Positions 1,607 to 55,660 of a DNA stretch of 64,000 nucleotides are shown here, in pieces (position 1 is the stretch's first letter; each line of letters begins with the position of its first letter). The notes beneath the pieces were generated by a model. The model saw nothing but the letters and a program-made list of their open reading frames with translations, made no database searches and was not told where the DNA came from. Source of the DNA: Octopus vulgaris. Taxonomy: Eukaryota. The DNA is taken from contig OX597823.1 in the NCBI GenBank assembly GCA_951406725.2, forward strand, positions 35,898,001 through 35,962,000. The letters are read 5' to 3'. Both the position numbers and the translations under genes were made by a program.

Positions 1607-4600
1607 TACGCAGCATACACACATTTTTCAACAAGATATTTGTTCTGTTTGATTGGACACCTTTCTTTGCTGAACGTTTCTTTCTTTTTACATATTTGCA
1701 TTGTATTTTTCAATTGTTCTTCCATAGTTCAGATTCTGTGTATCACACATTTTGTTCTCTACTAGAACAGACATTTTTTCTGCATGTGTCCTCCAAGTTT
1801 GTACACTTGCATTGTTCATATAACTGTTTTGCCATATTTCATTCTTCTCTGTCCTTCTATCGTACACGTACATTTCGCCTACCTTCCTTTTGTTCGACTG
1901 TTTGCGGTCTAAAGGTGGGGGCTGTAGGCGCAGTTACCTTCCCTGGCGGTAGCTGCCTAAATAGCTCGCCACTTGGAGGCACAACATGTAACTTTGAGGT
2001 TCCGGCATTCAGTCCTTTCTCTTTGTCATCGCGGCGGTAGCGTGTGAGGACGTAACCTCGTTAGCTCCTGCATAACGCATGCAACAGCTAACCGACATTC
2101 TGCAGCTATGAGGTAGAATACACAGAAGTTGAACATGACCTTCACTTGTAAACACCTTCCTTGATTATTCAACTTGCATATATTTGTGACCTCGAGTAAA
2201 AGCTTTACTGTGGCCGCAGTGCCGAGGTGTGATAGTGAATGGATTCATTGTACAGTGTTCTTTCTTCGAATGACATCTATTTCACCTTCCTGAACGGAGT
2301 CGTCATTTGATGGCTTCACCACGTGAGACCACGACCATCTATAAGAACTTAGACAGCTGTAAACTCCAGTGATACAGTATAACATCGTCTTCATTGATCT
2401 GAAACAAGTTTGGAATTCCATGCTAATTTCCCCACTAAAACTTTTACAAAGTCTTGCAAGTCATCTATTTCTTATCAATATCATTCAATCAATATGAAAG
2501 GAAGCAAATTTGCTAATGATTAAAGTTGCGTCTGTTTGAAAGATAAATAATTAAGCAGGTGTATGAAAATATAAAGAAGCCACTGTAATACTAACTTAGC
2601 ATTTCTTAATTACAGCAAAGCATTCGCCTGATAATGGAAAATATTGGCATTGTTTAACGTCACAAAACGTTTTGTCCATTTTAAAGGATATATATTTAGC
2701 CAAATGAATCGCTCAGTCTTTGATATTTCCTGGTACAGGAACCCTAAATTTGTCAGAATCTAGAAATATCGTAACTTCACTAGGGAGAATAATTCGATCA
2801 CGTAAGTATTTGTATTTCTTAAAGATGGTATTGTTTACTGACATCCGATTTCTTCAGCTGCCATATTATTAATTAACTTTTAGATTAATTTACATTATCT
2901 CCCCATGAATTCATTCTTTGTCTTCAATTACTTTCTATTATTTCTATTTATCGTCCAAACTGCCTGGAAATTAACACAAGATATCTTTTGATAAATATCC
3001 CCCATATAATTTTTAACAGTTATCTCATTAACATATATTTAATAATTAACCGCATATACATATAATAATTAATCTCATATACATATATTTAATAAATGAT
3101 CTCAGTAGCATATATTAATTTAAGAGAATATTAGGAAAAAATCTTAATATGTAATTTTTTTCACAAACGTTGTTCATTCCTTCTCCTTTTCCAGTCTTTA
3201 TATTTATGTTCCCTCTCTCTCTCTTTCTCTTCCTCCCTCTCTCCGTCCTTTCTCTTCCTCCATCTCTCCCCCTCTCTCACTTTCTCTCTTCGATAACAAA
3301 CAATATTAAATGTATCAGTATATAATTATTACATCCATTACTCCACTTTATTATTTCACACTACCGAACCTACACAACTCTAGATTATTAAAAACAACCC
3401 TTTAATGTATTCAGTAGCTAATTTTTTTACATAATACAAAAATGAATTAATACTCATGATTATGGCTTTTCCATTAAAATTTGCTCCATTCTTTTCAATT
3501 TCTTGTAATTTCCCGGCATTAATTGATATGTTACTTTTCGTCGTTGTCGTCGTAGTAGTAGGTGTAGTAGCAGCAGCAGCTTTACGTTTGCAAAGAAAGG
3601 ACGCTGTTCTTTGGAGCTCATGTAGTATTGAATTTTATTTTGAAGAATGTTATTTTGGTTTGTGTTGTACTATTTTGTTAATAAACCAACCAGCATGCTC
3701 TAGAGTTAGTTGGCTTTGTCAAATATTTGTCCCTTCGGGCGAATTTTGGAATTTTCAGTCTCAAAGTTACATATATTTTAAAGAAAAACAATATCGTTTC
3801 TCAAATAGAGGGAGACAGCTATAGGAAGAACCATTGTGGAAATAGTTTCCCATCACTACTTGCTACAGTAAATAGAGAACGTATGAATAATAATTGCAAC
3901 TGCAAAAACATAAGTGAAAAAGAACTTGCAGGAACAGTAACAGCATCAGCGACAATGAGAAGCAAGACAAAAAGAACATTGAAACAAACATGACTACCAC
4001 CACCATCACCACCACCACCAAGTAGCAGAGCTTTCTTTACAGAACAAAGACATGCAAAAGTGCTTCTTTCCAAAAATTGCAGAGCAATATGCCTGAACAC
4101 GTTACAACAAATTCACATGGAAACCCAAAGAAAAATAATGACATATAAATGCATTTGGAGCAAAATTAAGCGACTTGAGCGAGTAGCGTTGCTTTAAACT
4201 AATCTCAACCTATGTCACTTGAAAAACTGAAGCGAGGTTTCCTACCAAAGAAGCAGCGAAGAGAAATCCAATTGCAACGAGAAAGAGTAACGAACTGCTA
4301 CTGATTTAAATATACTTCGGTTCGAGAGCAAAAATATAGGTGACCGGGGTATCGCCAGAAGTAGATATCGCCTTGCTTGTGGCAGTCGTAATATATGGCA
4401 CAGATAAAACGAGTATTCTACAAGTCTACAAACTAGGAAAGAAAAATTTGTCAGGCACAGAAATGCAACAATTTATCCAGACCGAGCAGGCATGGCAGTC
4501 ATCCCTGACTTTATCGCCCACCTAAATGATTTTCACCTACTCATAGCAGTGAGGACAGAAGGCCCAAATGATATATATATGTAGAGATGAAAACCAGCTA

Positions 4601-9703: not shown

Positions 9704-11163
9704 TCGTGTTTATCAGTATCTACATGGGTTTTCTGAAATCTGTCCCAGGTTTTACACATGCAAAGGAAGAAACTGTGGTAAACACTCTGCAATCAAAGTT
9801 AAATTTTCTTAAAAGTTACGGATATGTTGAGAATGTATGGAGCCTACTTTTATAGCAACAAGTGTTTCCTGATACCATTCTTTCTTCCCCCTCCATTTCA
9901 TTTCTGCAATGCTAAAATGAGTCTAAAAATATTTTATCTACAAGATTATTTCTCTTTTATTATCAGAAAATGCGGAAACTGTTTTGCAAATTTATAAGTT
10001 AGCTTTCTAAACACGAATATAGTTCATGTCGGATTCGAGTGAAAGGAACAGTTCAACCACAAGGTTAAGACATTTCATGCTTTGAATATTGTTACATATA
10101 CTGAATGAGACCAACTGTGGCGTAACTTAAATTTCCTTTACACAATCATTAGTCCACCATACTATACAGCATCCATGGAAGTGATTTCAAAACATTTAAA
10201 ATAAAATGCAGTGAATTTTATGTCTGTTCTCAGAGAAATGACTGCCACGGGAGAGAAATTAATTCTTGAAATTCAATATGACAATTAGCAGTTTCTTCAC
10301 TTAAAAGCAAGTTTTCTAATTTAGTTTTCATATTTAGATAAATTCAAATTTAACAAGTTTTTCGTCTCTAGTTTTCTTTAAAATGTACGAAATAAAATTA
10401 ACTGGCGATAAATTAATTTAAATGATCAATTTTAAATAGTGAGTAATCAGCTTTTGCTATTCTTTAACAAAGATCTCAAGTATCCATTAGCTCACTTAAT
10501 TATTTTTAATGTTGAACAATATGTTCATTCCTATAAGACAGTCTCGTACACCAAAATTAATTCAACAGTTTGCTATGCATTTCAGAAAAATCAATTTCTA
10601 GAAACAAATAATATTTCTTCCTGTGCGTGAGAAGTTAACACCATGGTAGACTGGAAGATCGACTCAATATCAACAAATTATGTCTGCAACAATTGTTTAA
10701 CAGACATAAAAGTCCTGATTTAGCAGACATAAAGGCGTTCTAATTGTGACTAACCATCCTGTGTCTTTTTATATATCAGGGACTATATAATCCAAGGTTT
10801 CTTATTTAAGATGGATTGGTATGATTTGCGGGCGATTAGGATGTCGTTTCTGGCAGGTCAAATGACCATGTACATGATCCTGCGTTTGAATAATCCTTGT
10901 GAAAAGGTTCCACATTCAATCAATTCAAATGACATATAATCTAACGACAACACCTTACTATTACAGCACGAAATTATTCGCTAAATAAGCTGCTGATCTA
11001 CCTTTGGTTAATTCTAACTAAAAAACAAAACCGGAATGAACTTTGAGACCGAAGACACCACGCGATTTATGCAACTAAACTTGAAAACAGTTCTATATTT
11101 AAGAGATGAGGAATTATGCACATTATTTACATTTGACGGATATTTGTCCTCATCTTGTTTGTT

Positions 11164-11208
11164 AATACAACGTTTCGGCTGATATACCCCCAGCGTTCAT
11201 CAGGTGTC
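11164..11208 (-). ncRNA. Putative minimal hammerhead ribozyme of PLE terminal repeat
   Basis: Minus strand GACAC-CTGATGA-ac-GCTG..CAGC-c-GAAACGTT-GTATT. Related copies at 39153-39195 (+) and, degenerate, about 33300-33340 (-). Confidence 0.55.
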
Positions 11209-11828
11209 TTGGGGAAATTCTCATTCTTAAGGCATTTTTCGATATTATTATTATTCAGGTCACTGCTTGGAATCGAACTCGGAATCTTGGGATTAGTAGC
11301 CCACGCTCTTAACCACTACACCATATGCCCGTGGAGTGAATATGGAGTGAATTTTAGGGCTTATAAATCTAATATTTTCCTATCCTTCCTTAATACCGGT
11401 TCCCATATGCTATGCATATCTGCACTGTCTGCTTAGGAGGTTGTTGTGTCCTAGCATATGTGCTGCTTCTTTTAGTTTTCGTGTTTTCCACTGGTGTTCT
11501 CTGTCTATTAATTTAACTTCATCCCACAGGGGAAGGTGGTCTCCACTTTTCCATACATGATCAGCTATACCTTATTTTATCAATATCTCCTTGTGTCATG
11601 TATGGAAAAATGGAGACCACCTCCCCTTGTGGAACGAAGTTCAAATAATAGACAGCGAACACCACTGGAAAATACGAAAACTAAAAGAAGCAGCACCTTT
11701 GCTAGGACACAACATCCTCCTAAGCAGACCGAGTACAGATATGAATAACATATGGGAACCGGCATTAAGGAAAGATAGGAAAATATTAGATTTATAAGCC
11801 CTAAAATTCACTCCATATTCTCTCCACG

Positions 11829-11900
11829 GGCATATGGTGTAGTGGTTAAGAGCGTGGGCTACTAATCCCAAGATTCCGAGTTCGATTCCAAGCAGTGACC
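11829..11900 (+). ncRNA. tRNA-derived Pol III module (A and B boxes) embedded in a repeat; not a functional tRNA
   Basis: GGCATATGGTGTAGTGGTTAAGAGCGTGGG CTACTAA TCCCAAG..GAGTTCGATTCC; acceptor stem does not close. Inverted copies at about 11257-11330 and 39080-39152. Confidence 0.7.
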
Positions 11901-12828
11901 TGAATAATGATAATATCGAAAAATGCCTTAAGAATGAGAACCCAGGTTCGAAATTTCCCCAAGAAGGTATATCAGCCGAAACGTCGTATTAAGATGAGGA
12001 CAAATATCCATCAAATGTAAATAATGTAAACTTGAAAACCTTTCTTACATATTCATTGATTGGGATTTCATTGGGATTAAAATTCAAATGAATTTCAAAG
12101 TAGGATTTTCATAAAATCTTGGCTTTGGAAATGGCTCAAAGTCACCAATATATGAACCAATTAAAACAGATCTAAAGAGTTAGCCCGTTTTGTGTGGGAG
12201 TCAGAAGCAAAATAAGAGTTAAACATATTACTAAGAATCTGGAATAACGTTTTCAGAATTGGCATTATGTTCAAGATTCTTAGAAGGGCTAATCGACTAT
12301 AATACTCCACTTGTGCTTTAATAACCTCGAAAGCGTAAAAGCAAAGTTAATTTTGGAGGAATTGAACTCAGCATGTAAATAACCAGAACAAATACTTCAA
12401 TGTATTATCCGACGTTCTAAAGATTCAAGTAATCAACCTAAACTGATATCAATTCAAAGAAAGATTGTATATTAGCTAAATCATGGTTTTTCCAGCCAAA
12501 ACCGATTGCCTTTTATGATTGTATACAGTCGTTTGGGGCCACCAACGCTCCAATGATTCCCTTTGGAGGAATAAAATTAAGAGCAACCTTAATGGTATTT
12601 GACCTCAGAATATGAAGAGATGAAACTAACAGGTAACCGACTGTCTTTATCAATTTCATTGCTATTCTATAATGAATAAAATGGATCATGTTCATTTAAA
12701 ATACAATTTCTATAGGAAAAAAATCTAAATGACAACTACCAGTTTTGCACCCATTTTCATATTTCATAAAAATGCTTTCACAAGTAAATATTCTTTTACA
12801 GTTTCTAAAATCGCTTCAGGTTCGAACA

Positions 12829-14730
12829 TCAATTTGAAACCGAAATAAGCCGTTTTTCTTTGAATAAATCTGATGGTTCCAGCTCCATTATACCATTCCA
12901 TTTATCAATATGCAGATTTATAAATGGATAATATTTCGTAGAAATTGGCTGTTTTTCGTTATTTGCATGAAACCCTCCTTTCAAAACAGAATTTCGGCTA
13001 AACACATCGATTGTCACTTCGTGTATATTAGACAATGGACTGGGTGACAACTCAACCCATTTGTTCCCATTTAATATATCATAGACAAAAACTCTTGTGA
13101 TAAATGGTGCTACATGCTCTAACAAAAACAGTTTCGAAGAATAAGAACAATAGTGAATAGAGTCAAAATGTGCCGCAAAATAAAGAATATTTTTTGAAAG
13201 TGTCACGTTGTCAGGGCGGAGTGGGCGGTAAGTGGCGATGGGTATATTGGCAGTTATGGTATTGTTTCGATCGAGTATTGATGTAGCTGTAAGTGAGCCA
13301 GACTTACACTGATCTATAAAAGGTTTACCCAGATTTTCTTTAATGATATGTATGTCTTTGTTGCGGAAAAGAATCATGCAGTTTACTGACGCAGCCCAAG
13401 ATTTCGATTCAAAAATAATTCTGAATCGCTTATTTAAACTGTCATATCGTAGAATAACGAATTTATCGGCATTGAGAAGATCGTTATCACATTCGCAGAA
13501 GGTCAGAAAAATATAAATTGTATCAAAGATTTCTGGGTCCGCTTCTATTTTCATTTTGCAGTCACCTTTCCAATCACGAAACACAATGCTAGCCGAGATT
13601 TTCCAAACTTTTTCGTAGATTTTAATCTGTAATCTGATCCCTTTACCGAATGCTGTGCAACATGCAATATGTATGCCAGTATTCAAACAAAAATACTGGC
13701 TAACTAGTAATCTCTCCACCGTGTGGGGAGTTGATATGAAACAAGCACACCAGGATATCATATTCAACATTTTTATTTTATGTTCACATTCGTCTAAAAT
13801 CACTATATCGCTCCCAAGAATACCAATTACTTTGCTGGTCAAAGTCGCAAGTATTTTCATCCATCTATTTTCTGCTGAGAAATAAATAGCTAAATACTCT
13901 CTCTCTTTCAACACCACCACCCAACTGGCATCAAAAAATGGAGTCATTTTTTCGTTTATTTTGTTATTATAATATAATCGCTTCAAAAAAGATTTTTTTT
14001 CAGATTCACCTTCGTTCGTTTGGTTCATTTCTTTAATCACATGCTCTAGGTACATTTTGGGGATAAACTTCGAGAAATATTTATGAGCATTTGCAAGTCT
14101 TTTTGAAAAATCTTCCTCTACCCAAGAAATAAGGAACCTGTAAGCATTTGTCACTTTCCTTGGAAACGGTGCATGGTCCAACAAGTATGACAATTCTTTA
14201 TCTGCGGTAAATTTAAGCATAGTCATCATCCTTTCCTCCCAAAATAATTCCTGCATTAAAATCAAAGCCATTTTTTCAATTTCCCAAAAATGAAACTTTC
14301 TCGCAATTCTCCAAATTTTTAAGCAACTGGTAGGTCTAATTCTAGTCAAAAGGAATTGTTTCGTGTGAAGCAGCAATCGTTTAAATGAGCAATAATGACA
14401 GATTTTCAAAATCCCTTTGATGTTGTAGTTACCTAGACAGATTTGTCGCTTATAAAGGTAGTTGATTATGCTTTCTAAGTAAGAGAAATTACTACAAACA
14501 TGTGAGAGGTCTATATAAATATGATGACCGGAAGCCACTTTCAGCTTTTCCTTGAAGTAATCACTCTCTGCTGCCAGAAGAAAGCTATGAACAGATATTT
14601 TTCGGGAGTTTATTTGCAAAGTTACGTCGACGTACTCCGAGTTCAGATATTGAAGGTGCAGTTTTTGAATGATGCAATTTTTAGAGATGTCACTAAACTC
14701 CAACAACTGTTGATTGTAGACCGCCATCAT
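12829..14730 (-). CDS. BTB/POZ plus BACK domain protein (Kelch-like/KBTBD-related) with divergent C-terminus, single coding exon
   Basis: 633-aa uninterrupted ORF. BTB motif YVDVTLQI..VHSFLLAAESDYF..IINYLY. BACK-like SCLKIWRIA..LISWVEEDFSKR. Splice acceptor TTTTCAG (exon from 14743) 13 nt before the ATG. Confidence 0.88.
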   Translation of the reverse strand: MMAVYNQQLLEFSDISKNCIIQKLHLQYLNSEYVDVTLQINSRKISVHSFLLAAESDYFKEKLKVASGHHIYIDLSHVCSNFSYLESIINYLYKRQICLGNYNIKGILKICHYCSFKRLLLHTKQFLLTRIRPTSCLKIWRIARKFHFWEIEKMALILMQELFWEERMMTMLKFTADKELSYLLDHAPFPRKVTNAYRFLISWVEEDFSKRLANAHKYFSKFIPKMYLEHVIKEMNQTNEGESEKKSFLKRLYYNNKINEKMTPFFDASWVVVLKEREYLAIYFSAENRWMKILATLTSKVIGILGSDIVILDECEHKIKMLNMISWCACFISTPHTVERLLVSQYFCLNTGIHIACCTAFGKGIRLQIKIYEKVWKISASIVFRDWKGDCKMKIEADPEIFDTIYIFLTFCECDNDLLNADKFVILRYDSLNKRFRIIFESKSWAASVNCMILFRNKDIHIIKENLGKPFIDQCKSGSLTATSILDRNNTITANIPIATYRPLRPDNVTLSKNILYFAAHFDSIHYCSYSSKLFLLEHVAPFITRVFVYDILNGNKWVELSPSPLSNIHEVTIDVFSRNSVLKGGFHANNEKQPISTKYYPFINLHIDKWNGIMELEPSDLFKEKRLISVSN

Positions 14731-17737: not shown

Positions 17738-18340
17738 GGCAATTGTGCTACAACTGAAGGATTGCAATGAAACAATTGTCTTGCAGCTGAAGAATTGCAA
17801 AAAGCAATTTTACTGAAACTGAAGGATTGCAATAAAGCAATTATGTTGCAACCGAAGAATTATAATACAGATACTGTATCACAACTGAAAGATTGCATTA
17901 AAGCAATTGTCATACAACTGAAGGATCATAATAAAGAAATTGCGTTATAACTGAATGATTGCAATAAAGCAATGTACTGAAACTGAAGGATTGCAATAAG
18001 GCATTTGTGCTGCGACTGAATGATTATAATTAAAAAAATTGCAATAAAGCAATTGTGTCACAACTGAAGGATTTCAAAAGAAGCAACTGTGCTGCAAGTG
18101 AAGATTCATAACAAAGAAATTGTGTTACAACCGAAGGATTACAATAAAGCATTTGTGCTGCAACTGAAGAATTATAATCAATTGCAACAAAGCAATTGTG
18201 TCACAAGTGAAAAATTGCAATAAAGAAATTGTCATACAACTGAAGGATTAGAACAAAGAAGAAATTGTGTTGCAACTGAAGGATTGCAGTAAACTAATTG
18301 TGCTGCAACTGAAGGATTGCAATGAAACAATTGTGCTGAT
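17738..18340. repeat. Degenerate 33-bp minisatellite, roughly 17-18 units
   Basis: Consensus AATTGTGCTGCAACTGAAGGATTGCAATAAAGC, head to tail, no spacers. Confidence 0.9.
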
Positions 18341-24100: not shown

Positions 24101-24159
<59 letters not shown>

Positions 24160-24489
24160 ATTTATTATATAGAAGGAGCTTCTACAGGACTAGTACTGTT
24201 TCATTCAAGAGAAATCTTCAGGAAGCTATTTAACAAGAATTGTATTAGCATTTATACATTTAGAGGAGTGGTGGTGGGGGACTTTTTGGGGGTAGGCATA
24301 GCGCAAAATATCATACTTGGGGGAGTGGTCAAGGTAATAAAAAAATAAAAAAATAAAATAAAAAAATAAATAAATAAAAAATAAAAAAATAACAAGATAA
24401 AATAAAAGAATAAAAATAAAAAATATAAAAAATATAAAAAATATAAAAAATATAAAAAATATAAAAATATATATAAAAAAATATATAAT

Positions 24490-24521
<32 letters not shown>

Positions 24522-24655
24522 AAAATATATATATAAAAATATATATATATAAAAAAAGGGGGGATAGAGTTATAGGTAAATAAGGAGATTCTCACTTATA
24601 CCTATACACACATGTATACGTATCTACACACACATACGCACATACACATATATCT

Positions 24656-24694
<39 letters not shown>

Positions 24695-25153
24695 CCTACA
24701 CATACACACATACATACATACAAATATACATATACATATATATATATACAATCCAATACAGGCCCATTCCCTAATTTTAATTTTATTATCTTCATTTATT
24801 ACTTTTGTTATCTTTGATCGCTAAGGCTAAGAATCCTGGCAATAGCTGCTTGTCCGTTTGTCTGTCTACTAGAAGGCAAGTACTCATTCCCGCACGCACA
24901 CTCATTAGCACGTACATTCACCCATTCGTACACTCATACACATACACGTACGCACGCGTTATATTCATACATACAAACATCTACATACGTTCACGTATAT
25001 ACACATACGTACTCGTACCTACAGATTCGTGTCTACACTTTAGGAGGCTAGTCTATACATATACACCAATAAATATACATATATATATATATATATATAT
25101 ACCCGCATATACATACACACACACACATATATACTCCTACATACAGATACATA

Positions 25154-25195
<42 letters not shown>

Positions 25196-25397
25196 TACAT
25201 ATATATATACATATATACACATACATACACATACACACATACACACACATACATACACATATATATACATACCCAAACATATATACACACACATATATAT
25301 ACATACACACATACACACATACATACGTATACATACATACATACATCTATACATCCATACTTACATGCATTTATACGCATACACACACCCATCTATA

Positions 25398-25434
<37 letters not shown>

Positions 25435-25711
25435 TCACACATACATATACAAATCTACGCACACACATACATACATACACGTATACGCATACACGCACAT
25501 ACACATATACATGCGTACCCATACACGTGCACACACGCACGCGCATCCATATAAATACACACACACACATATATATATACACGTGTGCAAGCATACATAC
25601 ATACTCATACGCGCACACATACTTACAAATACATATATGCACACACACACACATATATATACATACACATATACATTCATACATACATATATTGATACAT
25701 ACACACACTCA

Positions 25712-25769
<58 letters not shown>

Positions 25770-26097
25770 TGTGTGTGTATGTATGCATATATGTATGTAT
25801 GCATGTATATGTGTATGTATATATATGTGTGTAAGTGTGTGCATATATGTATTTGTAAGTATGTGTGCGCGTATGTGTATGTATGTATGCTTGCGTGTGT
25901 GCACGTGTATGGGTACGCATGTATATGTGTATGTGCGTGTATGCGTATAAATGCATGTAAGTATGGATGTATAGATGTATGTATGTATGTATACGTATGT
26001 ATGTGTGTATGTGTGTATGTATATATATGTGTGTGTATATATGTTTGGGTATGTATATATATGTGTATGTATGTGTGTGTATGTGTGTATGTGTATG

Positions 26098-26165
<68 letters not shown>

Positions 26166-26626
26166 TATGTATCTGTATGTAGGAGTATATATATGTGTGT
26201 GTGTGTATGTATATGCGGGTATATATATATATATATATATGTATATTTATTGGTGTGTATATGTATAGACTAGCCTCCTAAAGTGTAGACACGAATCTGT
26301 AGGTACGAGTACGTATGTGTATATACGTGAACGTATGTAGATGTTTGTATGTATGAATATAACGCGTGCGTACGTGTATGTGTATGAGTGTACGAATGGG
26401 TGAATGTACGTGCTAATGAGTGTGCGTGCGGGAATGAGTACTTGCCTTCTAGTAGACAGACAAACGGACAAGCAGCTATTGCCAGGATTCTTAGCCTTAG
26501 CGATCAAAGATAACAAAAGTAATAAATGAAGATAATAAAATTAAAATTAGGGAATGGGCCTGTATTGGATTGTATATATATATATGTATATGTATATTTG
26601 TATGTATGTATGTGTGTATGTGTAGG

Positions 26627-26681
<55 letters not shown>

Positions 26682-26820
26682 AGATATATGTGTATGTGCG
26701 TATGTGTGTGTAGATACGTATACATGTGTGTATAGGTATAAGTGAGAATCTCCTTATTTACCTATAACTCTATCCCCCCTTTTTTTTATATATATATATT
26801 TTATATATATATTTTATATA

Positions 26821-26858
<38 letters not shown>

Positions 26859-27182
26859 TATTTTTTTATATATATTTTTATATTTTTTATATTTTTTATA
26901 TTTTTTATATTTTTTATATTTTTTATTTTTATTCTTTTATTTTATCTTGTTATTTTTTTATTTTTTATTTATTTATTTTTTTATTTTATTTTTTTATTTT
27001 TTTATTACCTTGACCACTCCCCCAAGTATGATATTTTGCGCTATGCCTACCCCCAAAAAGTCCCCCACCACCACTCCTCTAAATGTATAAATGCTAATAC
27101 AATTCTTGTTAAATAGCTTCCTGAAGATTTCTCTTGAATGAAACAGTACTAGTCCTGTAGAAGCTCCTTCTATATAATAAAT
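24160..27182. repeat. About 3 kb palindrome (arms about 1.4-1.55 kb) centred on a (TA)n tract, ending in Penelope-like terminal sequence
   Basis: 24160 to about 25715 is the reverse complement of about 25767-27182; identical peptides are predicted from 24805 (+) and 26516 (-). Confidence 0.92.
27115..27165 (+). ncRNA. Putative type I hammerhead ribozyme (mirror copy on minus strand at about 24177-24227)
   Basis: AGCTTC-CTGAAGA-tTTC tctt GAAt-GAA-ACAG tactagtc CTGT-A-GAAGCT: 6-bp stem I, 4-bp stem III, GUA site, weak stem II. Confidence 0.65.
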
Positions 27183-27291
27183 TAATTTTACTCTGCTATG
27201 TATTGAGTACCTTACTTACTGTGGTTAACCCCGAATCAACCCGGGAACTACATATATATATATATATATATATACATAAATACATACATAC

Positions 27292-27557: not shown

Positions 27558-27791
27558 AAGGTGGGGTAGGGTATGTGGGAGTGGGATGTGTGGGGGTATG
27601 GTGTGGATAGAGGAGGTATCGATGAAGGAAGAAGGTGGGGAAGAGTGAAGAGAGGAAGAAGGTGTCACATGAAGAGAAGAGAGGAGGGGAGTTGTGCCCA
27701 TGTGGCGAAGAGAGAAGATTAATTCCTGTTCAAGGCGAAGGCGGGGGTCCGGATGGCCCCTGTGCAAAGACAATCCGAACACAGACAGGTG

Positions 27792-27842
<51 letters not shown>

Positions 27843-27855
27843 GTATGTATGCATG

Positions 27856-27903
<48 letters not shown>

Positions 27904-27932
27904 CATGCATACATACATACATGCATACATAC

Positions 27933-27977
<45 letters not shown>

Positions 27978-28233
27978 CACCTGTCTGTGTTCGGATTGTC
28001 TTTGCACAGGGGCCATCCGGACCCCCGCCTTCGCCTTGAACAGGAATTAATATTCTCTCTTCGCCACATGGGCACAACTCCCCTCCCCTTTTCATCTGAC
28101 TCTCCTCCTCTGTTCTCTTCATGTGACACCTTCTTCCTCTCTTCACTCTTCCCCACCTTCTTCCTTCATCGATACCTCCTCTATCCACACCATACCCCCA
28201 CACATCCCACTCCCACATACCCCACCCCACCTT
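27558..28233. mobile_element. Palindromic Penelope-like 3' fragment centred on (TA)n, with GIY-YIG C-terminus
   Basis: Both arms encode [28 protein letters not shown], similar to the R..REQ.LIF.L end of PLE endonucleases. Confidence 0.7.
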
Positions 28234-29381: not shown

Positions 29382-30643
29382 CGAGGGGCGTTCAATAAGT
29401 AATGCCCCTGACCCACTTCCCATAGCAGTAGAGCAACGAAACTTGGCACAGTTATTAGTCTTTTTCTACATAGGAACCACCCAGAGTTACGCATTTCTCC
29501 CATCGTTTGATGCAGCTTTGGAGACCGTTTTTGTAGAAGACCCCAGCTTGGTCCTCCAACCACGACGTCACTTCAGACATCAAGGCTGCATCATCTGGGA
29601 AACGCTTTCCTTTCAAAAACAACTTCATGGCTGGGAAGAGGTGAAAATCAGAGGGTGCAAGGTCAGGAGAGTAGGGGGAATGGGAAATGAGTTCATAGCC
29701 GCACGCCTGTGCTTCTGATCTGGCGACACGCGAGTTGTGGACCGGAGCGTTGTCCTGCAGGAGGAAGATGCCTTTGCTGATCTTACCCCGCCTCTTGATT
29801 TTGATAGCTTCTCTTAATTTCATCAAAAGTGAAACATAATAGGCTCCTGTAATTGTGGTACCCTTAGCCAGGAAATCTGTCATCACTACTCCGTCCTGGT
29901 CCCAGAAGACTGTGAACATGACCTTGCCAACGGAGGGCTGCACCCTTGCCTTCTTTGGAGGAGGTGAGTCACGGTGCTTCTACTGCATTGACTGGGCTTT
30001 GGTCTCTGGATCATAGTGATGGACCCAGGTTTCATTCTGTGTAATCAGTCTTTTGAAAAATTTTGCCTCCTCTTCTTGGCACATCTCCAAATTCATCCTC
30101 GAGCACTCGACGCGTTCTTGCTTCTGGAAAGGTGTGAGCAACCTGGGAATCCATCTGGCAGACACCTTTTGCATATGCAAATGGTCATGAATGATAGTTT
30201 CCACAGACCCGGTACTAATCTTGACCTCATGGGCTATTTGGCGAATAGTTATGCGTCGATCTTCCAAAATGGCAGCCTCAACTTGACGGACAGATGCCTT
30301 ATCAATGGCAGGAGGGGGTCGACCAGATCTGGGAGCTGTTTCCACAGAGTTCCGAACATGTTTGAATTCACGATTCCAGCATTTTACAAGGTCATATGAT
30401 GGGGCATCATCACCATAAGTTACTTTGATTCCATCAAAAGTCTCCCGTGGTGTGCGTCCTTTCAAATACAAAAACCAGATCACTGCTCGACACACAACAG
30501 GCTCCATTTCACACTTGACTCAGTTCAAACACCTGTAATTCGCCACTTAATTTGTAGAGATATGAATAATTGCACATGCAAAATTTCAACTAGATCAAAC
30601 AACTGCAAGTGGGTCAGAGGCATTACTTATTGAACGTCCCTCG
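29382..30643 (-). mobile_element. Full-length mariner (DD34D) transposon with TIRs and TA TSD
   Basis: TIRs CGAGGGGCGTTCAATAAGTAATGCCCCTGACCCACTT at both ends (few mismatches). TA at 29380-29381 and 30644-30645. Confidence 0.95.
29455..30507 (-). pseudogene. Mariner transposase, 350 codons, one premature stop and first catalytic Asp changed to Asn
   Basis: ORFs 30507-29980 and 29943-29455 are in frame across a TAG (expected TGG in SMQW). WIPRLL, TQNETWV (expected D), QDNA-x34-D, YSPDLAPSDFHLF. Confidence 0.92.
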
Positions 30644-33390: not shown

Positions 33391-33433
33391 GTTATTGTTG
33401 TTGTTGTTGTTGTTATTACTATTATTATTATTG

Positions 33434-33505
<72 letters not shown>

Positions 33506-34012
33506 TATGTTTGACTTTTGCTTTATATTTGTACAAGTTTGCTCCAAGTCTCATTCAGAGACCTCAAGAGACAACAGGTTGGAAGTTCATGTTGTTGTTA
33601 TGCCTAGTGTACCATATATTTGGTTTTGTATTTAGTGTTGCACTAGTGAATGTCTAAAAAAAACATACGAAAATTATGTTTGTTTTAAAACTTGAGATTA
33701 CATAGAAAGTATTTTGCGTAGGATATGAGCAGTTCCCATGAGCACTATCTTTTGAATTTCTGCCATTTTGGGGTTTCCTGGTATCTGAGTTAGGTAGCAA
33801 TCAGCCCCTTTTGCTATCATTCCCAGGGTACCTATGACAACAGATATTGTTTTAGTCTTCAAGTTCCTCATTTTGCTGATTTCTATTTCAAGATCTTTAC
33901 ATTTGCTCAGTTTTTGGTAGGTCTTGACAGATACGTTTATATCGATTGGGACAGTCATATCAATGAGGACGCATGTTCTTTGTCTGAAGTCTTTCAATAT
34001 GATGTCTGGCCT

Positions 34013-34041
<29 letters not shown>
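33506..34041 (-). mobile_element. 5'-truncated RLE-type (Dong/R4-like) LINE 3' end
   Basis: TDRKIDANRPDII..LIDMTVP..K..K.KDLEIEI..IQKIVLMGTAHILRKILSM plus 3' UTR; (TAA)n on both sides. Confidence 0.88.
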
Positions 34042-34313
<272 letters not shown>

Positions 34314-34324
34314 TATTATTATTA

Positions 34325-34359
<35 letters not shown>

Positions 34360-34533: not shown

Positions 34534-36963
34534 TCACATCGACAATGCTCTTCTCAATACGTGTGATGTACCAGTTAAGACAATCTTTTGCACTTCTTGC
34601 AGGGATGGTAAGCCAGGGATCATTCTCATATAATTTTCGGTTCCCTTCTTGATCATTCCTAGTGCTCCTACGATCACTGGTATTGTAACCGCCTTGAGAT
34701 GCCACATTTTCTCAATTTCAATGAGTAGGTCTTTATATTTTCTGAGCTTGTCAAACTCTTTCGCTGAGATATTATGATCACAGGGGATGCTCATGTCGAT
34801 CAATAAGCAAACTTTATTGTTTTGGTCTTTCACAACAATATCTGGTTTATTGGCCTTGATGGTTCGGTCTGTATGTACTGGAAAGTCCCACAGAATGGTT
34901 ACATTTTCTCCTTCAGTTACAGCCTCAGGGTGGTGATTATACCACTTGTCGGCAGTTTTGATATTGTAATACCGACTTATTAGCCAGTGGAGATATTGGC
35001 CAACTCTGTCATGTCTTAATTTATACTCCACTGGTGCTAAGACTTTACATCCAGAGATTAGGTGGTCCACTGTTTCAATCATGTCGTTGCAGAATCGGCA
35101 TTTTGGGTCTGCTCCATTTTTCATCACATTGGCCTGGTAGTTCCGGGTTAATAGGCTTTGGTCTTGAGCAGCCAGGATGAAACTTTCGCTCTCTGCTTTT
35201 AGCCTTGAGCTCCGTAGCCACTGATGGGTTTGCTTCTGGTCAACATCAGCTTGTTTGCTGCGGGTCACATATTTGCCGTGCAGAGGTTTCTCCTCCCACC
35301 TATCAGCCAATTGCTCGTGCGCTTTTTTCATTGCCATCATTTTCACCTTCTTTGCAACAATAGTTGCCGTACTTCCCTCGGGTTGTTCAGTTTGGGTATC
35401 CTGCACGAGATCAATAGCAAATTTTTTGCTTTCCTTGATGATAGAATGAAGCTTCTTTCGTCTCTCGTGATTTTCCACGAGCTTTAGCATCCAGTCATTC
35501 GATATTTCGAGATATTTGGCCAGTCCAATTGTGGTTGTTTTGTAAGCTAGTTCAAATTGGATCAGGCCTCGACCTCCTTGGGCTCTGGGAAGGTAAAGGC
35601 GATCTACGTCTGCCTTTGGGTGGTGCATCCTATTACAACTCAGCAGCTTGCGTATTTTTCTATCTATATTCTTTACTTCACTCATATTCCAGTTCAACAC
35701 ATTGTAGCTATAAGTAACAACTGGAACTGCTAAGGAATTTATAGCTAACACCTTGTTACGTGCATTTAGTTCAGATTTCAGGACTGCACGAACTCTCCTA
35801 TAACATTCCTTCCTGATTTTCTCTTTCATGCTTGCATGCTGAATACCAGAGCCTTCATTTATCCCTAAATATTTGTATGTTTGTTCTTGCTCAAGCTCTC
35901 TTATGACTGTGTCAACATCTAACACGACTGAATTTGTGGTCTTCACTTTCCCTTTCTGGAAAGTGGCCTTGGCACACTTCTCAAGTCCAAACTCCATCCC
36001 GATGTCATCGCTGAATGCTTTCACGGTGCGCAATAGGCCTTCAAGTTCATTATTGTCTTTACCATAAAGTTTTAAGTCATCCATATAAAATAGATGGCTT
36101 ATTTTTTTATTGGCAATTTTATACCCATACCCTGTTCTGTTTAATTCACTTGTAAGGGGTATTAGGGCTATGCAGAATATTAAAGGTGAAAGTGAGTCAC
36201 CTTGAAAAATTCCACAGTTGATGTTTAGATTTTCTGAGGCAAGTACTCCATTAGAGTGGTATAATTGGAGATTCGTATTCCACAACGACATATTGTGCTT
36301 CAGGAAGTTTGAAATCACAGGGGAAATTTTGAAGATGTCCAGCGATCTCAAGATCCATGGATGCGGTATACTGTCGAAGGCCTTTTTATAGTCAATCCAT
36401 GCGGTGCTGAGATTTCTGCGCTTGTTGTGACAGTTCTCAAGGATCATACGATTGATTAGCAGTTGATCTTTGCATCCGTAAGAGCCTCGGCGGCACCCTT
36501 TTTGTTCAATGGGGAAAATATCGTTCTTCTCCATGAATGCATATGTTTTCTCCGCCAGGATAGATGTTAGGATTTTATACGTGGTGGATAGACAGGTTAT
36601 AGGCCGATAGTTTTTTGGAAGGTTGGTTTCGTTATTCTTTGGGAGTAGGTAAGTAATGCCACTTGCTAACCATTCAGGTGTTTTCTTTGGGTCTCTCATA
36701 ATTCCATTGAGCAGCTGAACTAGCTTACCGTGTGCGCACGGGAGCGATGCGAGCCAGAAATTCGGCACCCTATCTTTACCGGGGGATTTCCAATTATGGG
36801 CCTTCGTGAGTGCCTTTCTTAGGTCTGCTATTGTGATGTCTTCCCATGCTTGTTGTTGTAAATTTTGGTAGGATCCTTCAGTTTGTATAATCCAGTCTGC
36901 ATTTATGTTGTACGTCTTCTTGTCACTCCAAATCCTTTTCCAAAAGTTTTGAACTTCTTCCAT
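34534..36963 (-). CDS. Reverse transcriptase plus RLE endonuclease part of the Dong/R4-like ORF
   Basis: 809-aa open frame with the RT motifs and PD..D..K endonuclease residues. Confidence 0.9.
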   Translation of the reverse strand: MEEVQNFWKRIWSDKKTYNINADWIIQTEGSYQNLQQQAWEDITIADLRKALTKAHNWKSPGKDRVPNFWLASLPCAHGKLVQLLNGIMRDPKKTPEWLASGITYLLPKNNETNLPKNYRPITCLSTTYKILTSILAEKTYAFMEKNDIFPIEQKGCRRGSYGCKDQLLINRMILENCHNKRRNLSTAWIDYKKAFDSIPHPWILRSLDIFKISPVISNFLKHNMSLWNTNLQLYHSNGVLASENLNINCGIFQGDSLSPLIFCIALIPLTSELNRTGYGYKIANKKISHLFYMDDLKLYGKDNNELEGLLRTVKAFSDDIGMEFGLEKCAKATFQKGKVKTTNSVVLDVDTVIRELEQEQTYKYLGINEGSGIQHASMKEKIRKECYRRVRAVLKSELNARNKVLAINSLAVPVVTYSYNVLNWNMSEVKNIDRKIRKLLSCNRMHHPKADVDRLYLPRAQGGRGLIQFELAYKTTTIGLAKYLEISNDWMLKLVENHERRKKLHSIIKESKKFAIDLVQDTQTEQPEGSTATIVAKKVKMMAMKKAHEQLADRWEEKPLHGKYVTRSKQADVDQKQTHQWLRSSRLKAESESFILAAQDQSLLTRNYQANVMKNGADPKCRFCNDMIETVDHLISGCKVLAPVEYKLRHDRVGQYLHWLISRYYNIKTADKWYNHHPEAVTEGENVTILWDFPVHTDRTIKANKPDIVVKDQNNKVCLLIDMSIPCDHNISAKEFDKLRKYKDLLIEIEKMWHLKAVTIPVIVGALGMIKKGTENYMRMIPGLPSLQEVQKIVLTGTSHVLRRALSM

Positions 36964-37038
36964 GGGAGGGGGTCTTTAACGGTTACTTTCTCCTTCCCTA
37001 TTTCTCTGTAGAATTTTTTGGCATTGGATGTGAACAGC

Positions 37039-38223
37039 TTATTTTGCTTGTAAAACTTGTTTCTCTTTCTCAAATCTTCGTATTCTTTGGGCTTTTGCTT
37101 GGACTTTTTGTTTCAGCGTTTCTTTTATTGATATCAGTTCTTCTCTTGGTGAGGATCCAAATTTTCTCTTCATCTTTCTTCCTGTTCTGGATCTTACATC
37201 ATTTCCACATATTAGTTCATTTAATATTGATATTTCCCCTCTCATAAATTCAATCTCTTTTTCAATTTTACTTCTCCAGGTTTGATTTCTTCCCAGGTTT
37301 TGTTTTCTTTGTTTTTTCGGGGGCATACAGCTGGTTTCAATTGCCCTAGCAGAAGCGTAAATAATTTCATTTAACTCAGTAAAATCAGGTTTTAATTCTC
37401 GTATTATTTCATTTGTTACATAGTTGCCAATTTGGATTTGTTTTTTATTTTGGTTTGTATTTGAGAGTTTATGAAGCGGTTCTCTATCATTCATACTTGT
37501 ATGTCTTACAACTTCAAGCGTATTCAGGATTTTCTGCCTCATTTCTGCCATAGACTCTCTGTGTTCTTCAGCAAATGCGAGATCTTGAGTTACTGTTGTT
37601 TTTTCGTTTTCCTGGCTATCTTTAACAGGTACAATAGAATTTCTTGTATCTTCAGGCCTTTGCGTACTTTGGTCAGATGGCAGTCTTTCAATTAAGCCTC
37701 GTGGCAGGCTATACTGTTCATCTGATTCTTCATTTCCTTTGTGTCTTATATTTATGTCATTTTCCGTTGCGTGTTTGATCGCGCTTATTTCACTGTCTGT
37801 GAGCCTGTTATTTCTAAAGATATCCCTCCTCACATTTGCTAATTTGTTCTCGTCCAAATAGGGCCTACTGTCTTGATTCCGTGTTCTCCATATACTGTAA
37901 GAGTTTGCGGTGTGTCTCTCTTTAGATGGCCTACCTAATGCATAGTAATAAGCGTATATTACTTCTTTATACTCTTCTCGGGTCCATTTGTTCCGCTTAC
38001 ATTTTTCTTTCTCTGGTGGTTGTGGTGGTGAACTTGGAGGGCTCGAGTTGGGGGATTTCCTGTTCAAGTGACCATCCATGTCCGTATTCGGAGAAGAGTT
38101 TGTGCCAGTTGATGACTTTTCGATCCCAGGCTGGCTCTTCCCTGGGGGACGCGCTTCCAGATTAACCATAGGACAAGCGATTTGGTATACTGATTTAGTT
38201 TTCCTTTTAGTTTCCAAAAACAT
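37039..38223 (-). CDS. N-terminal part of the Dong/R4-like ORF
   Basis: 394 aa; KWTREEYKEVIYAYYY..W Myb-like motif; separated from the RT part by compensating +1/-1 indels. Confidence 0.8.
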   Translation of the reverse strand: MFLETKRKTKSVYQIACPMVNLEARPPGKSQPGIEKSSTGTNSSPNTDMDGHLNRKSPNSSPPSSPPQPPEKEKCKRNKWTREEYKEVIYAYYYALGRPSKERHTANSYSIWRTRNQDSRPYLDENKLANVRRDIFRNNRLTDSEISAIKHATENDINIRHKGNEESDEQYSLPRGLIERLPSDQSTQRPEDTRNSIVPVKDSQENEKTTVTQDLAFAEEHRESMAEMRQKILNTLEVVRHTSMNDREPLHKLSNTNQNKKQIQIGNYVTNEIIRELKPDFTELNEIIYASARAIETSCMPPKKQRKQNLGRNQTWRSKIEKEIEFMRGEISILNELICGNDVRSRTGRKMKRKFGSSPREELISIKETLKQKVQAKAQRIRRFEKEKQVLQAK

Positions 38224-39046
38224 TTTGGTGCTACGATAATGTTATCATTTTTTAGCTTTGATTGATCGTGGGGAGACGGCCATCATTGCCGTTACAATTA
38301 TAGTCGTACCATTATAGCAGCCGTAGTCGGCTTATTATTGTTATTATCATCACCATTACCATCACTATCATCATTATCACCACCATTACCATCATCATTA
38401 TCATCATCACCATCACCATCACCACCATCATCATCAATGATATTGTTTTATGTGTAGTCACAGCAGTATCTTATTATTGTTATTTTTGTTTTTTTATCAT
38501 TATCACCATAACAGTAGTGTCTGTCTGTCTCGTTGGCTGGCTTGGTGGTTGGCAGGCTGACTGTCTTCAACGCCAGAGTTCTTGCCTGTCAAATAATACT
38601 TTCATATTTGGTTAACAATAGAGCCGAGGTGAGGTTTGTGTTGATTGAACTATTTGAGTGTGTGTGTGTGTGTGTGTAGATAGATTATCAGCACTATTAC
38701 TATCATTACTATCATCATCACCATCATCACCATCACCATCAGTGATATTTTTTTTATTTTTTTTTTTTTTTTCTTTAGGTGCGGTCCTATCGGTCAAAAA
38801 AAGTTCAGATGTTTACTACTATTAGGCTTAAGAAAAATTAAGGAAGGGCTGTTCTGTATTGTTTGTGAATAGAGAAGTTGTGTTCGACCAGAGAGAATCT
38901 TAGCATCATCATTTATTTTTCCACGTGCGTTTGTGTTATTGCAATAAAAAAAGTGTTTGTATATTTCCTGTAAGGTAATATTGTGGAGGTTGAAGTTGAC
39001 TTTTCTAGAGATGTTTGTATTATTATTATTATTATTATTATCATCG

Positions 39047-49416: not shown

Positions 49417-49820
49417 CTGATGTTCATATCGTTGAATTTTTAATTTCTGATTTTTTAAAAAACTTTAATATCTACGATTTTCTGTGAAAATTTTACCCTC
49501 TTTTTCTTTTCTTTCCTTTCTCCTTGGGTACTCGAAAATGTAAACATCATTTTTATTGCAAAAACACTACAGTCGTCTCTGATCGAATCTCTAGAAAATT
49601 TTAAAACTTTAATATCTACAATTTTATCTTTCTTTTCTCCCTGACTACCCGCATATGTACACATACCTTTTATTGCAACAACACAATTTAATGCACGATA
49701 AAAAGAAATTAATGAGATAAGCACCTGTCAATATATATAAACTGTACAATTGCAAAACTGTAAACCACAGCAAAACTTATAAACATAAAAGAAAAAACAT
49801 TTAAACTATTATTATTTTTA

Positions 49821-49880
<60 letters not shown>

Positions 49881-49920
49881 ATTATTATTATCATTATTAT
49901 TATTATTATTATTATTGTTG

Positions 49921-49951
<31 letters not shown>

Positions 49952-50029
49952 CATTATTATTATTATTATTATTATTGTTGTTCTTATTATTATTATTATT
50001 ATTATTATTATCATTATTATTATTATTAT

Positions 50030-52621
50030 TCAGTAGTTTTATTTTTATAGCGTGCTTTCACTTCACTACCGAGCGCAGCTCTGTGTGCCTTGGGTATGTG
50101 CTGTGATTTGTTGTGATGCTCTGATGGTTATTGTATGGAAAGTGTTCTGCGTAGGATGTGTGCAGTGCCTAGTAGTGCAATTTTCTGTATGTTATATGTG
50201 TTTGTAAGTCCTGGTGTTTTTGTTATGTATTTGTCTGAATATTTTTTTATCATGCCTAATGCACCTACTATGATAGGAATTGTTTCTGTTTTCAGGTTCC
50301 ACATTCTAGTTATCTCTATTTCCAGGTCTTTGTATTTTGAGAGTTTCTCCATTTCTTTTAGAGACACGTTGTCATCTGCCGGTATTGATACATCAATTAG
50401 AAAGCATTTTTTTTCTTCATGATCTCTGACAACTATATCTGGTCTGTTGGCCTTAATTTCTCTATCTGTGTGTATCGGCATATCCCAGAGTATGGTTGCT
50501 TTCTCGTTTTCTGTGATCTTTTCTGGTGTGTGCCTATACCATCTTTTTTCTGTTGTTATTCCATAATGTTGGCATAGCTTCCAATGTATGTAGGTTCCAA
50601 CTCTGTCATGTCTGTGAATATATTCCTTCTTAGCCAGGACTGGGCAGCTAGAGATAATATGATTTATTGTTTCTTGTCCATCTCCACATATTCTGCAGTT
50701 ACTTGTAATATTTCTTTTCATTACATGCTTTTGGTAATTTCTGGTGGGGAGGCTTTGGTCTTGTGCTGCAATTAAAAATCCCTCTGTTTCTGCTTTGAGT
50801 CCTGAGCTTCTCAACCATTGCTGGGATTTTTCTTTGTCTATTTCTTTTGCATTTAGTTTAGTGCAGTATTTACCATGAAGGGGCTTTTCTTGCCATCGTT
50901 TTATCATGGCTCGTTGCTGTTCTATTTTTAGTTTGGATTTCATTTGTTTTATAGCTTTTGTTGTTTCTTCATCATCTTCTTCTTCTTCTTTGTGTTTATT
51001 AGGTGGTATGATTTCTTGTTTGTATTTGTCAGCTTCCTTAAATACTGAGAACAGTTGTTGTGTTTTGCTCGTGTTTTGCTGCTATCTGGATCAGTGTTCC
51101 TTCCTTCTGAAGTAGGTATTTTTGCAGTCCTATGGTGGTTATTTTATAGTAGTTTTCCAGCTGTATAAGGCCTCTACCACCTTCTATACGTTGTATATAT
51201 AGTCTTTCTATGTCAGATTTTGGGTGATGCATCCTAGATCCTGTCAGTATTTTTCTTGTTTTCCTATCTATTTTGGACAGTTCATTTCGTGTCCAGTTAA
51301 GGATATTGTAGCTGTAACTTATAACTGGGACAGCTAAAGTGTTGATACCTATTATCTTGTTTTTAGCATTGAGCTCTGTTTTTAGTATTGATCTAACTCG
51401 TCTATAATATTCTTTTTTTATTTTCTCTTTCATTTGTGTGTGTTGTGTCTTATCTAGTTCATGGAGTCCTAAGCATTTGTAAGTTTGGCTTTGGTCTAAT
51501 TCTTTTATTTCATTGGTTTTATCTAGTGTGATGTTGTTACTCTTAACTAGTTTTCCTCTTTTCAGGGTTACTTTGGCGCATTTTTCTAATCCAAATTTCA
51601 TATCTATTTCTTTGGTAAATCCATGAACTGTCTTTAATAGTGTTTCCAGCTGTTTGTAATTTGCAGCGTATAGTTTTAGGTCATCCATATATAAAAGGTG
51701 GCTGATCGTTTTGCCGTAACATTTATATCTGCATCCCGTTCTATTTAGCATATCAGATAGAGGTGACAGTGCCAAGCAGAAAAGGAGTGGAGAGAGCGTG
51801 TCTCCCTGGAATATTCCTCTTCTAATGGGGATGTCTTTGGTTTTCATGAGTCCCTCTTTTGTTTGGAGGTGTAGGACTGTTTGCCATTTATTCATAGAGT
51901 GCTCTATGAATTTTATGATTGTTGGTGCTACTTTGTTAATGGCTAGTGTTTCGAGGATCCATGTGTGGGGGATGCTATCAAACGCCTTTTTGTAGTCAAT
52001 CCAGGCCATACTGAGGCCTTTCTTCTTTCTGTGGCTGTCTTCAGTTACGGCTTTATTAATCATTAGTTGATCTTTACAGCCATATGAGCCCTTGCGGCAT
52101 CCTTTCTGCTCTTCTGGGGACAGTTTGTTTTCGTCCAGGTGCTTGTTCAGCCTTTGCGATATCACTGCAGTAAATGCCTTGAACATAGTAAGGAGGCAGG
52201 TTATTGGTCTGTAGTTTTCTGGTTTTGTTGTTTCATTTGATTTGGGAATTAAGATGGTTTTCCCCTTCGTGAGCCATTCAGGCATTGTCTCTGGCTCTGC
52301 TAGTATGCTGTTAAAGTTTTCAGCCAGCTTTTTGTGCATTCCTGTTAGATATTTCAACCAGAAGTTGGGGATCTTGTCATGCCCAGGTGCCTTCCAGTTG
52401 CTTAGTTTTTGCAGTGCCTGGGTGACCTCTTCAGTTGTTATGGGGGTCCAAAGTTGTTCAGATGCCGAGTTTATTATTTTCATACTCCTTTTTTTTGGCT
52501 GTTCGTTCGCCGACCATATTTCTCTCCAGAATTCTTCCAATTCTTCTGCCGTTGGTGCTGCAGTGACTTCTATTTTATTTTTGCCCAGTTCTTGGTAGAA
52601 CTTTTTGGGGTCGGAGTTGAA
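50030..52621 (-). mobile_element. 5'-truncated Dong/R4-like LINE, copy A (RT plus RLE, one frameshift)
   Basis: ORFs 52540-51038 (YMDD) and 50943-50128 (CRIC..HIISSC, RPD..D..K); flanked by (TAA)n. Confidence 0.93.
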
Positions 52622-52830
52622 TTAGAACTTTTTGGGGTCGGAGTTGAATTAGAACTTTTTGGGGTCGGAGTTGAATAGAACTTTTTGTGGTCGGAGTTGA
52701 ATAGAACTTTTTGGGGTCGGAGTTGAATAGAACTTTTTGGGGTCGGAGTTGAATAGAACTTTTGGGGGTCGGAGTTGAATAGAACTTTTTGGGGTCGGAG
52801 TTGAATAGAACTTTTTGGGGTCGGAGTTGA

Positions 52831-52831
<1 letters not shown>
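52596..52831. repeat. 26-bp tandem repeat, 9 copies, derived from LINE coding sequence at the 5' truncation point
   Basis: Unit TAGAACTTTTTGGGGTCGGAGTTGAA; sense encodes FNSDPKKFY. Two junctions carry one extra T. Confidence 0.95.

Positions 52832-52917
<86 letters not shown>

Positions 52918-53570: not shown

Positions 53571-55660
<2,090 letters not shown>

Follow-up and report, generated by a model that had tools for sequence, protein, structure and literature searches.

Tandem copies of a LINE's own terminal sequence at 5′ insertion junctions in the Octopus vulgaris genome

Results

We analysed a 64,000-nt stretch of the 2.8-Gb, 227-contig Octopus vulgaris genome (OX597823.1, positions 35,898,001–35,962,000, assembly GCA_951406725.2; hereafter the window). 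On its minus strand, at 50031..52621, lies a 5′-truncated copy of a LINE that we call family A, ~99% identical to its nearest copies. The reverse transcriptase (RT) reading frame of this copy spans 51038–52621 and matches RVT_1 in a Pfam scan (E=3.7e-30); a C-terminal frame (50128–51081, minus strand) carries, by pattern matching, a CCHC knuckle and a PD..D..K endonuclease motif. The 3′ end of the copy runs without a terminal repeat into a downstream (TAA)n tract (49807..50030, minus strand). Upstream there is a second such target tract, (TAA)29, at 52832–52917 on the same strand.

The body does not meet the upstream tract directly. Instead, a 26-nt unit is repeated nine times head to tail at 52596–52831 (TRF: period 26, 9.0 copies, 97% matches), and the complete outermost unit adjoins the tract. 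The innermost copy (52596..52621, minus strand), the template window of the array, is the element's native 5′ end: it is in frame with the RT reading frame (motif FNSDPKKFY), and comparison with other copies shows that the element is cut short at position 1379, counted on a full-length copy of 3.97 kb. Because this ninth copy is the element's own, we count as extra the eight copies at 52622..52831 (minus strand; TRF, unit alignment and a genome-unique junction), which we call array A. The two extra units next to the body are 27 nt long, each having gained one base (a T on the plus strand), and two further units have one private substitution apiece; these 2 substitutions in 210 nt equal the 0.8–1.0% distance of the body to its nearest copies. 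TRF and the reading frame bear out the original prediction that the terminal coding segment is present nine times here, and the two junctions with an extra T are also as it described them. A second family A copy in the window (53573..55315, minus strand), truncated at position 2226, has a clean (TAA)n junction and serves as an array-free control.

Array A lies outside the family consensus, as the original prediction requires. It is missing from all 29 other loci of the family A search, its unit–unit junction has six exact matches in the 2.8-Gb genome, all at the window site, and a comparison with 329 further loci finds none of its 118 distinct 31-mers there. Absence from other copies and the single-copy junction rule out that the array is part of the family sequence. 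We also rejected simple slippage at the native 10-nt direct repeat on either side of the unit, since this predicts a 21-nt unit where 26 nt are observed. At least half of 12 sampled array A words are present in 7 of the 24 listed sequencing runs, from five studies, one of which runs may be the assembly source; runs with fewer than five words (4 rows) were disregarded. These matches support a real tandem junction, the exact copy number being the assembly value.

By its sequence, family A is an RLE-type LINE, one of the early-branching non-LTR retrotransposons: it has a non-LTR-type RT, CCHC and PD..D..K motifs and a single long reading frame, and Pfam scans of six window reading frames found no APE family. 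It is ~3.97 kb long and young, most copies being 97–99.5% identical to the full-length reference copy L075, in which 741 and 395 aa lie in one frame with a single stop between them. Exact motif matches give at least 7,299 genome copies by the 3′ motif and 298 by the 5′ motif. Its 3′ ends run into a (TAA)n or (GAA)n tract in 143 of 147 cases, and such a tract lies within 1.2 kb upstream of 153 of 169 truncated starts (within 8 nt in 115). The RT region of a neighbouring element is 51% identical, and all five PDB matches of that element's protein are R2 proteins; this protein has many homologs of 1,100–1,260 aa, and none of those returned is a named R4 or Dong reference. The Dong/R4 label for family A, a provisional one, fits the element anatomy and the (TAA)n target. 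Dong-R4 families are described as abundant or recently active in cephalopods in two papers whose main texts do not contain the word 'junction' (PMC13282606, PMC8967140). Silkmoth Dong is described as having an HDV-like self-cleaving ribozyme at its 5′ end (PMC3774820). In family A, an Rfam scan of 601 nt gave a best match of 16 bits against a cut-off of 95, which is chance level, and a crude HDV-like descriptor had no match in the first 260 nt; both results are compatible with a divergent ribozyme.

Several other rearrangements were seen among family A copies. Five (L053, L059, L102, L113 and L231) have 5′ inversions or fold-backs, so that such events occur with an RLE-type element too. One copy (L088, reference positions 3453–3679) has a 226-nt internal tandem duplication, and six young copies (L085, L108, L111, L155, L015 and L139) have internal deletions of 64–2,600 nt. 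Eight copies (L029, L063, L097, L134, L135, L164, L207 and L259) have a (GAA)n run between the (TAA)n tract and the element end, often where the element starts with a GAAG-like word, possibly a 3-nt reiteration seeded by the element end. Copies of family A and of the second family described below have often used the (TAA)n tail of a previous copy as their insertion site (for example L016, L091, L097, L100 and L196), which gives rise to head-to-tail chains.

The original prediction of a similar architecture in a different family at 34013–34212 also held: this site has period 29 and 6.9 copies, followed by (TAA)n. The element concerned, a family B LINE copy represented by its 3′ 0.54 kb (33505..34041, minus strand), sits between (TAA)n tracts at 33413–33504 and 34211–34359. 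Its array, array B (34042..34212, minus strand; TRF, native sequence), comprises about six extra 29-nt copies of the family B 5′ end, and the inner units start 3 nt further 5′ than the outermost one, in native family B sequence. Family B has at least 2,349 exact genome matches, a reading frame of ~1,300 aa and a plan like that of family A. A near-complete third RLE LINE (34534–38510, minus strand), with an 813-aa RT/RLE frame and a 400-aa upstream frame, has a 5′ region resembling that of family B; no terminal repeat was seen in it by eye.

Elsewhere in the window, inverted repeats of 87–90% identity surround simple repeats at 24157–27185, 11120–12027 and 27558–28233 (spans of ~3.1, 0.9 and 0.7 kb), and a degenerate 33-nt minisatellite with higher-order periods of 65–81 and 145 nt occupies 17739–18335. 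Two adjacent frames at 29455–30519 (minus strand) presumably resemble a mariner-type transposase, and an intronless 633-aa reading frame at 12829–14730 (minus strand) has an N-terminus that we take to be like that of a BTB/BACK protein.

Arrays of this kind are frequent at 5′ junctions. From 169 truncated family A starts we retained 141, having dropped 16 that lacked a TAA tract in the 1.2 kb upstream, 4 whose tract was more than 700 nt away, 5 internal breaks and 3 with unrelated flank. With array A itself excluded, 14 of 140 (TAA)n-bounded junctions have arrays; 10 further clean junctions have none (14/150 overall), and the strictly position-ordered subset gives 6/97. Eight of the 14 have at least two extra units and four have at least four; the 14 include one low-complexity, uncertain case (L232), two single short partial units (L124, L204) and one with an inverted piece (L196). 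Truncated family B junctions have arrays in 5 of 75 cases, array B excluded (removed beforehand were the window copy, one spurious row, 10 rows lacking a tract and 5 that were full-length starts or internal breaks or had unrelated flank). Among full-length family A copies the frequency is far higher: 39 of 69, sampled by position order from the 298 5′-motif matches with one already-sampled place skipped, repeat their 5′ end 1–27 additional times (122 extra units altogether), and a single junction class of such copies has 308 exact matches genome-wide.

The controls are nearly empty. A terminal repeat of at least 8 nt is present at 0 of 147 3′ ends, two of which have a 6-nt duplication just inside (14/140 versus 0/147, Fisher p=3e-5). 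In 237.6 kb of aligned element interior there are two tandem duplications (9 and 226 nt), a count taken from alignment gaps and splits that may miss some events; on this basis arrays are ~190-fold enriched at truncated 5′ junctions. The arrays are 5′-junction-specific copies of each insertion's own terminal window, and they have arisen anew at many positions. This agrees with the original prediction in tying the arrays to formation of the 5′ junction, in both families, and in the position of the unit, which differs in each truncated copy. Its proposed route to new minisatellites by insertion is likewise upheld, with arrays reaching 638 nt. The predicted clustering of unit length at 25–30 nt failed: units measure 10–45 nt in truncated copies, and inner units of full-length copies are mostly 17–30 nt with a mode of 23.

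The start of the units is fixed and their end is not. Each insertion has a single start, the 5′ end of its body, and across families A and B the arrays sit at ~20 different positions. End points differ even inside single arrays: the units of L207 have 18–43 templated nt, all starting at 3188, those of L139 have 17, 23 and 78 nt, those of L192 have 31–35 nt, and L062 varies too.

Two classes of truncated array can be recognized by eye. In 8 of 21, including array B, the outermost unit lacks at least 3 native bases that inner units hold; with such a 5′-partial outer unit, duplication of an existing locus is insufficient without a second event. In 7 of 21, including array A, a complete outer unit is combined with TAA-like linkers. 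The classes do not overlap, TAA linkers being present in 0 of the 8 arrays with a 5′-partial outer unit. Non-templated linkers are substrings of (TAA)n in 11 of 12 cases, against 3.9 expected; both the listing of linkers and the division into two classes were made by eye, after inspection of the data. The first 80 nt of full-length copies contain just two TAAG words, and 86 of the 108 inner units of these copies stop at one of them, a count weighted heavily by two long arrays; 34 of the 39 arrays have a TAAG-ending unit (by eye). TAAG is also the word at the junction of target and element. Overlap at linker-free junctions is weakly above chance (10/13 versus 6.5, two-sided p=0.045) and is absent from the 26-nt junction of array A.

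Substitutions are mostly private, also in the arrays of 16 and 27 units, and array divergence is about that of the bodies. Older copies are not enriched for arrays, the median identity being 98.8% for copies with arrays (n=12) and 98.1% for those without (n=112; p=0.10). Ten full-length copies with two common diagnostic sites (29 aligned) have 0–4 extra units with differing ends, and in full-length copies the bases immediately 5′ of the core track the haplotype of the body.

Four arrays have a more complicated structure. In L196 (~1215–1262, minus strand) the 14-nt unit consists of a forward 6-nt piece and an inverted 7-nt piece of the element end, which repeated snap-back fits best. In L054, flank, TAA and element end are duplicated together. 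L150, with an alternating variant, and L272, with a composite unit, are organized in blocks and need later DNA-level expansion or an inherited array.

Discussion

We infer from these features that the arrays are written while the insertion junction forms. How this happens is less certain. Our preferred mechanism, to which we give roughly even chances, is that second-strand synthesis starts and aborts repeatedly, each time priming anew on the end of the cDNA. In such a scheme, target-primed reverse transcription would run to the RNA 5′ end or to a break, and the cDNA 3′ end so produced might be lengthened by a few bases for which the upstream (TAA)n top strand serves as template. The top-strand 3′ end would then prime on the cDNA end, copy ~20–30 nt and release; the new end would re-pair by 0–4 bases, either with the cDNA end or with the TTA tail on it, and recopy the window; and after one to many such rounds synthesis would run on into the body. 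A tailed cDNA end would yield a complete outer unit and TAA-like linkers, as in array A. An untailed end would force an internal first priming and so yield a 5′-partial outer unit without a linker, as in array B. The polymerase could be the element RT or a host repair polymerase, both being compatible with the data. We favour abortive second-strand starts because a single model covers both array classes, and the target-like TAA linkers point to a DNA junction intermediate as the template. Against this model count the inverted pieces of L196, the blocks of L150 and L272 and the weakness of the overlap.

The sequence of the junctions is symmetric, however: the constant start point, the short overlaps and the greater length of inner units also allow a reading as jumping back of the first strand. 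In this main alternative, which corresponds to the telomerase-like model of the original prediction and which we regard as possible though less probable, the RT adds or copies 0–3 bases at the RNA 5′ end, sometimes from the target top strand, and re-enters the RNA, or a short 5′ fragment of it, 10–45 nt downstream, the cDNA finally being joined to (TAA)n by microhomology. A final internal join is expected to leave the partial outermost units seen by eye in 8 of 21 truncated arrays, and progressive shortening of an RNA fragment would make the innermost unit the longest, as it is in L207, L150 and L062. The blunt or +1 junctions match the end-to-end template jumping described for R2 proteins in vitro (PMC11371274), and the inverted pieces of L196 resemble snap-back of cDNA. 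Yet the 78-nt unit of L139 lies outside a 23-nt unit, contrary to steady shortening; the TAA-like linkers of truncated copies are not RNA-derived, so that each round needs an excursion to the target and back; and every time the RNA window has to be released from the cDNA.

Post-insertion slippage or repair, duplicating the junction of (TAA)n and element and then expanding the copies, probably contributes to some arrays and is unlikely to account for them in general. Slipping against the flank is expected to give TAA-like linkers and TAAG end points, the joint duplication of flank, TAA and element end in L054 is of this kind, and L150 and L272 show block-like expansion. A minisatellite born by slippage should nevertheless show no bias of 5′ over 3′ ends and an outer unit at least as long as the inner ones. 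Both expectations failed: 3′ ends are likewise flanked by (TAA)n and have no arrays (14/140 versus 0/147), and in eight arrays the outer unit is partial, its inner units keeping native bases that it lacks. End points that vary within arrays, the lack of an excess in older copies and mostly private substitutions also speak against slippage.

It is very unlikely that the full-length arrays were inherited from source elements transcribed from inside a 5′ repeat, with the truncated arrays being unrelated accidents. The bases just 5′ of the core do follow the body haplotype, there are recurring structures, and inheritance followed by a new round fits L150 and L272; but between copies with common diagnostic sites both the number of units and their end points differ, truncated arrays occur at ~20 internal positions, and the junction of array A is single-copy. 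Rolling of the RT on a small RNA circle, covalently closed and excised from the transcript 5′ end, which the original prediction had offered as one route, can scarcely be maintained: array A and the arrays of L028, L239 and L260 are very regular, whereas a circle should give a single junction, and it is disfavoured because ±1 base, TAA linkers and differing end points are found inside single arrays (L207, L139, L062 and L120). An assembly or sequencing artefact is practically out of the question, since, although array copy numbers come from the assembly, unit substitutions are private, the same architecture recurs at ~60 sampled loci, one class has 308 exact junctions and junction words are present in runs from five studies.

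Repeated copying of short sequence has precedents. Polymerase theta primes iteratively, and recopying of a short window, with realignment over a few bases, underlies repeat addition by telomerase as well as the tandem repeats that form the 3′ tails of I factor and eel L2. In those systems the window is fixed and lies at a 3′ end or at the end of a chromosome; here it is set by each insertion's own 5′ end.

At 5′ junctions the closest parallels are extra bases of other kinds. Zebrafish L2 LINEs are reported to acquire templated 5′ extra nucleotides by an annealing pathway (PMC4760211, PMC4245944), with extras of up to 158 nt in de novo ZfL2-1 inserts (PMC4245944, Table S3). As in the octopus, these are 5′-junction extras, copied from flanking genomic or LINE DNA, with annealing of ends and overlaps of 1–2 nt; the accounts cited describe extra bases and no regular arrays, whereas here the window is copied in near-perfect tandem up to 27 times and in 57% of full-length copies. 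R2 (an RLE element) and R1, both site-specific, also have short direct duplications at the 5′ junction: 13–28-nt direct duplications of 28S target sequence are reported for R2 (PMC3774820) and insertion-site rearrangements for R1 (PMC2718515), and among the junction inserts in the legend of Figure 5 of the R2 study are a few in which a segment of ~20 nt or shorter stands about three times in tandem (PMC3774820). The unit duplicated in R2 is target rDNA also contained in the transcript, and is explained in that study by one annealing-free join, the multi-copy inserts not being taken up in the sections cited; the unit here is internal element sequence, at any truncation point, without a target counterpart. 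R2 junction classes have also been described for a system of the same protein class (PMC11371274, PMC11331408, PMC12222951), in which snap-back and template jumping are documented and second-strand priming is called poorly understood; the account given there, as cited, does not include a class of short terminal reiteration. Polymerase theta makes templated insertions, in Drosophila also at the 5′ junctions of group II introns (PMC3280974), so that a host polymerase can add extras, sometimes copied from neighbouring sequence, at a retroelement 5′ junction. Those extras are heterogeneous, with no long regular arrays in the report cited, unlike the regular arrays found here. In the mostly open-access literature searched, we found no description of tandem reiteration of an element's own 5′-terminal window. 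We regard the arrays as a form of templated LINE 5′-junction extra bases, striking in regularity, copy number and frequency and apparently undescribed.

The joining of the LINE 5′ end and the start of the second strand are the least understood step of retrotransposition, which also constrains R2-based tools for gene insertion. An array reads like a log of the successive attempts at priming in one insertion, its starts, stops and linkers resolved to the base, and since such records exist in hundreds of genomic copies (308 exact junctions in one class alone), models of second-strand priming can be tested by genome mining. Minisatellites of any element-derived sequence could be born in one event.

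The arrays may also matter to the element itself. We consider it a speculative, rather doubtful possibility that the element RT has a built-in mode of 5′ repeat addition that renews the element's own end, new minisatellites being a by-product. If so, a target-tethered RT would copy a window of ~20–30 nt, release it, realign on TAA and repeat, and hundreds of new minisatellites would be seeded per genome. The arrays of full-length copies would then be a sacrificial buffer, guarding or regenerating the 5′ terminal (promoter) sequence in a telomere-like manner, and thus possibly a way for a LINE to renew its own 5′ end.
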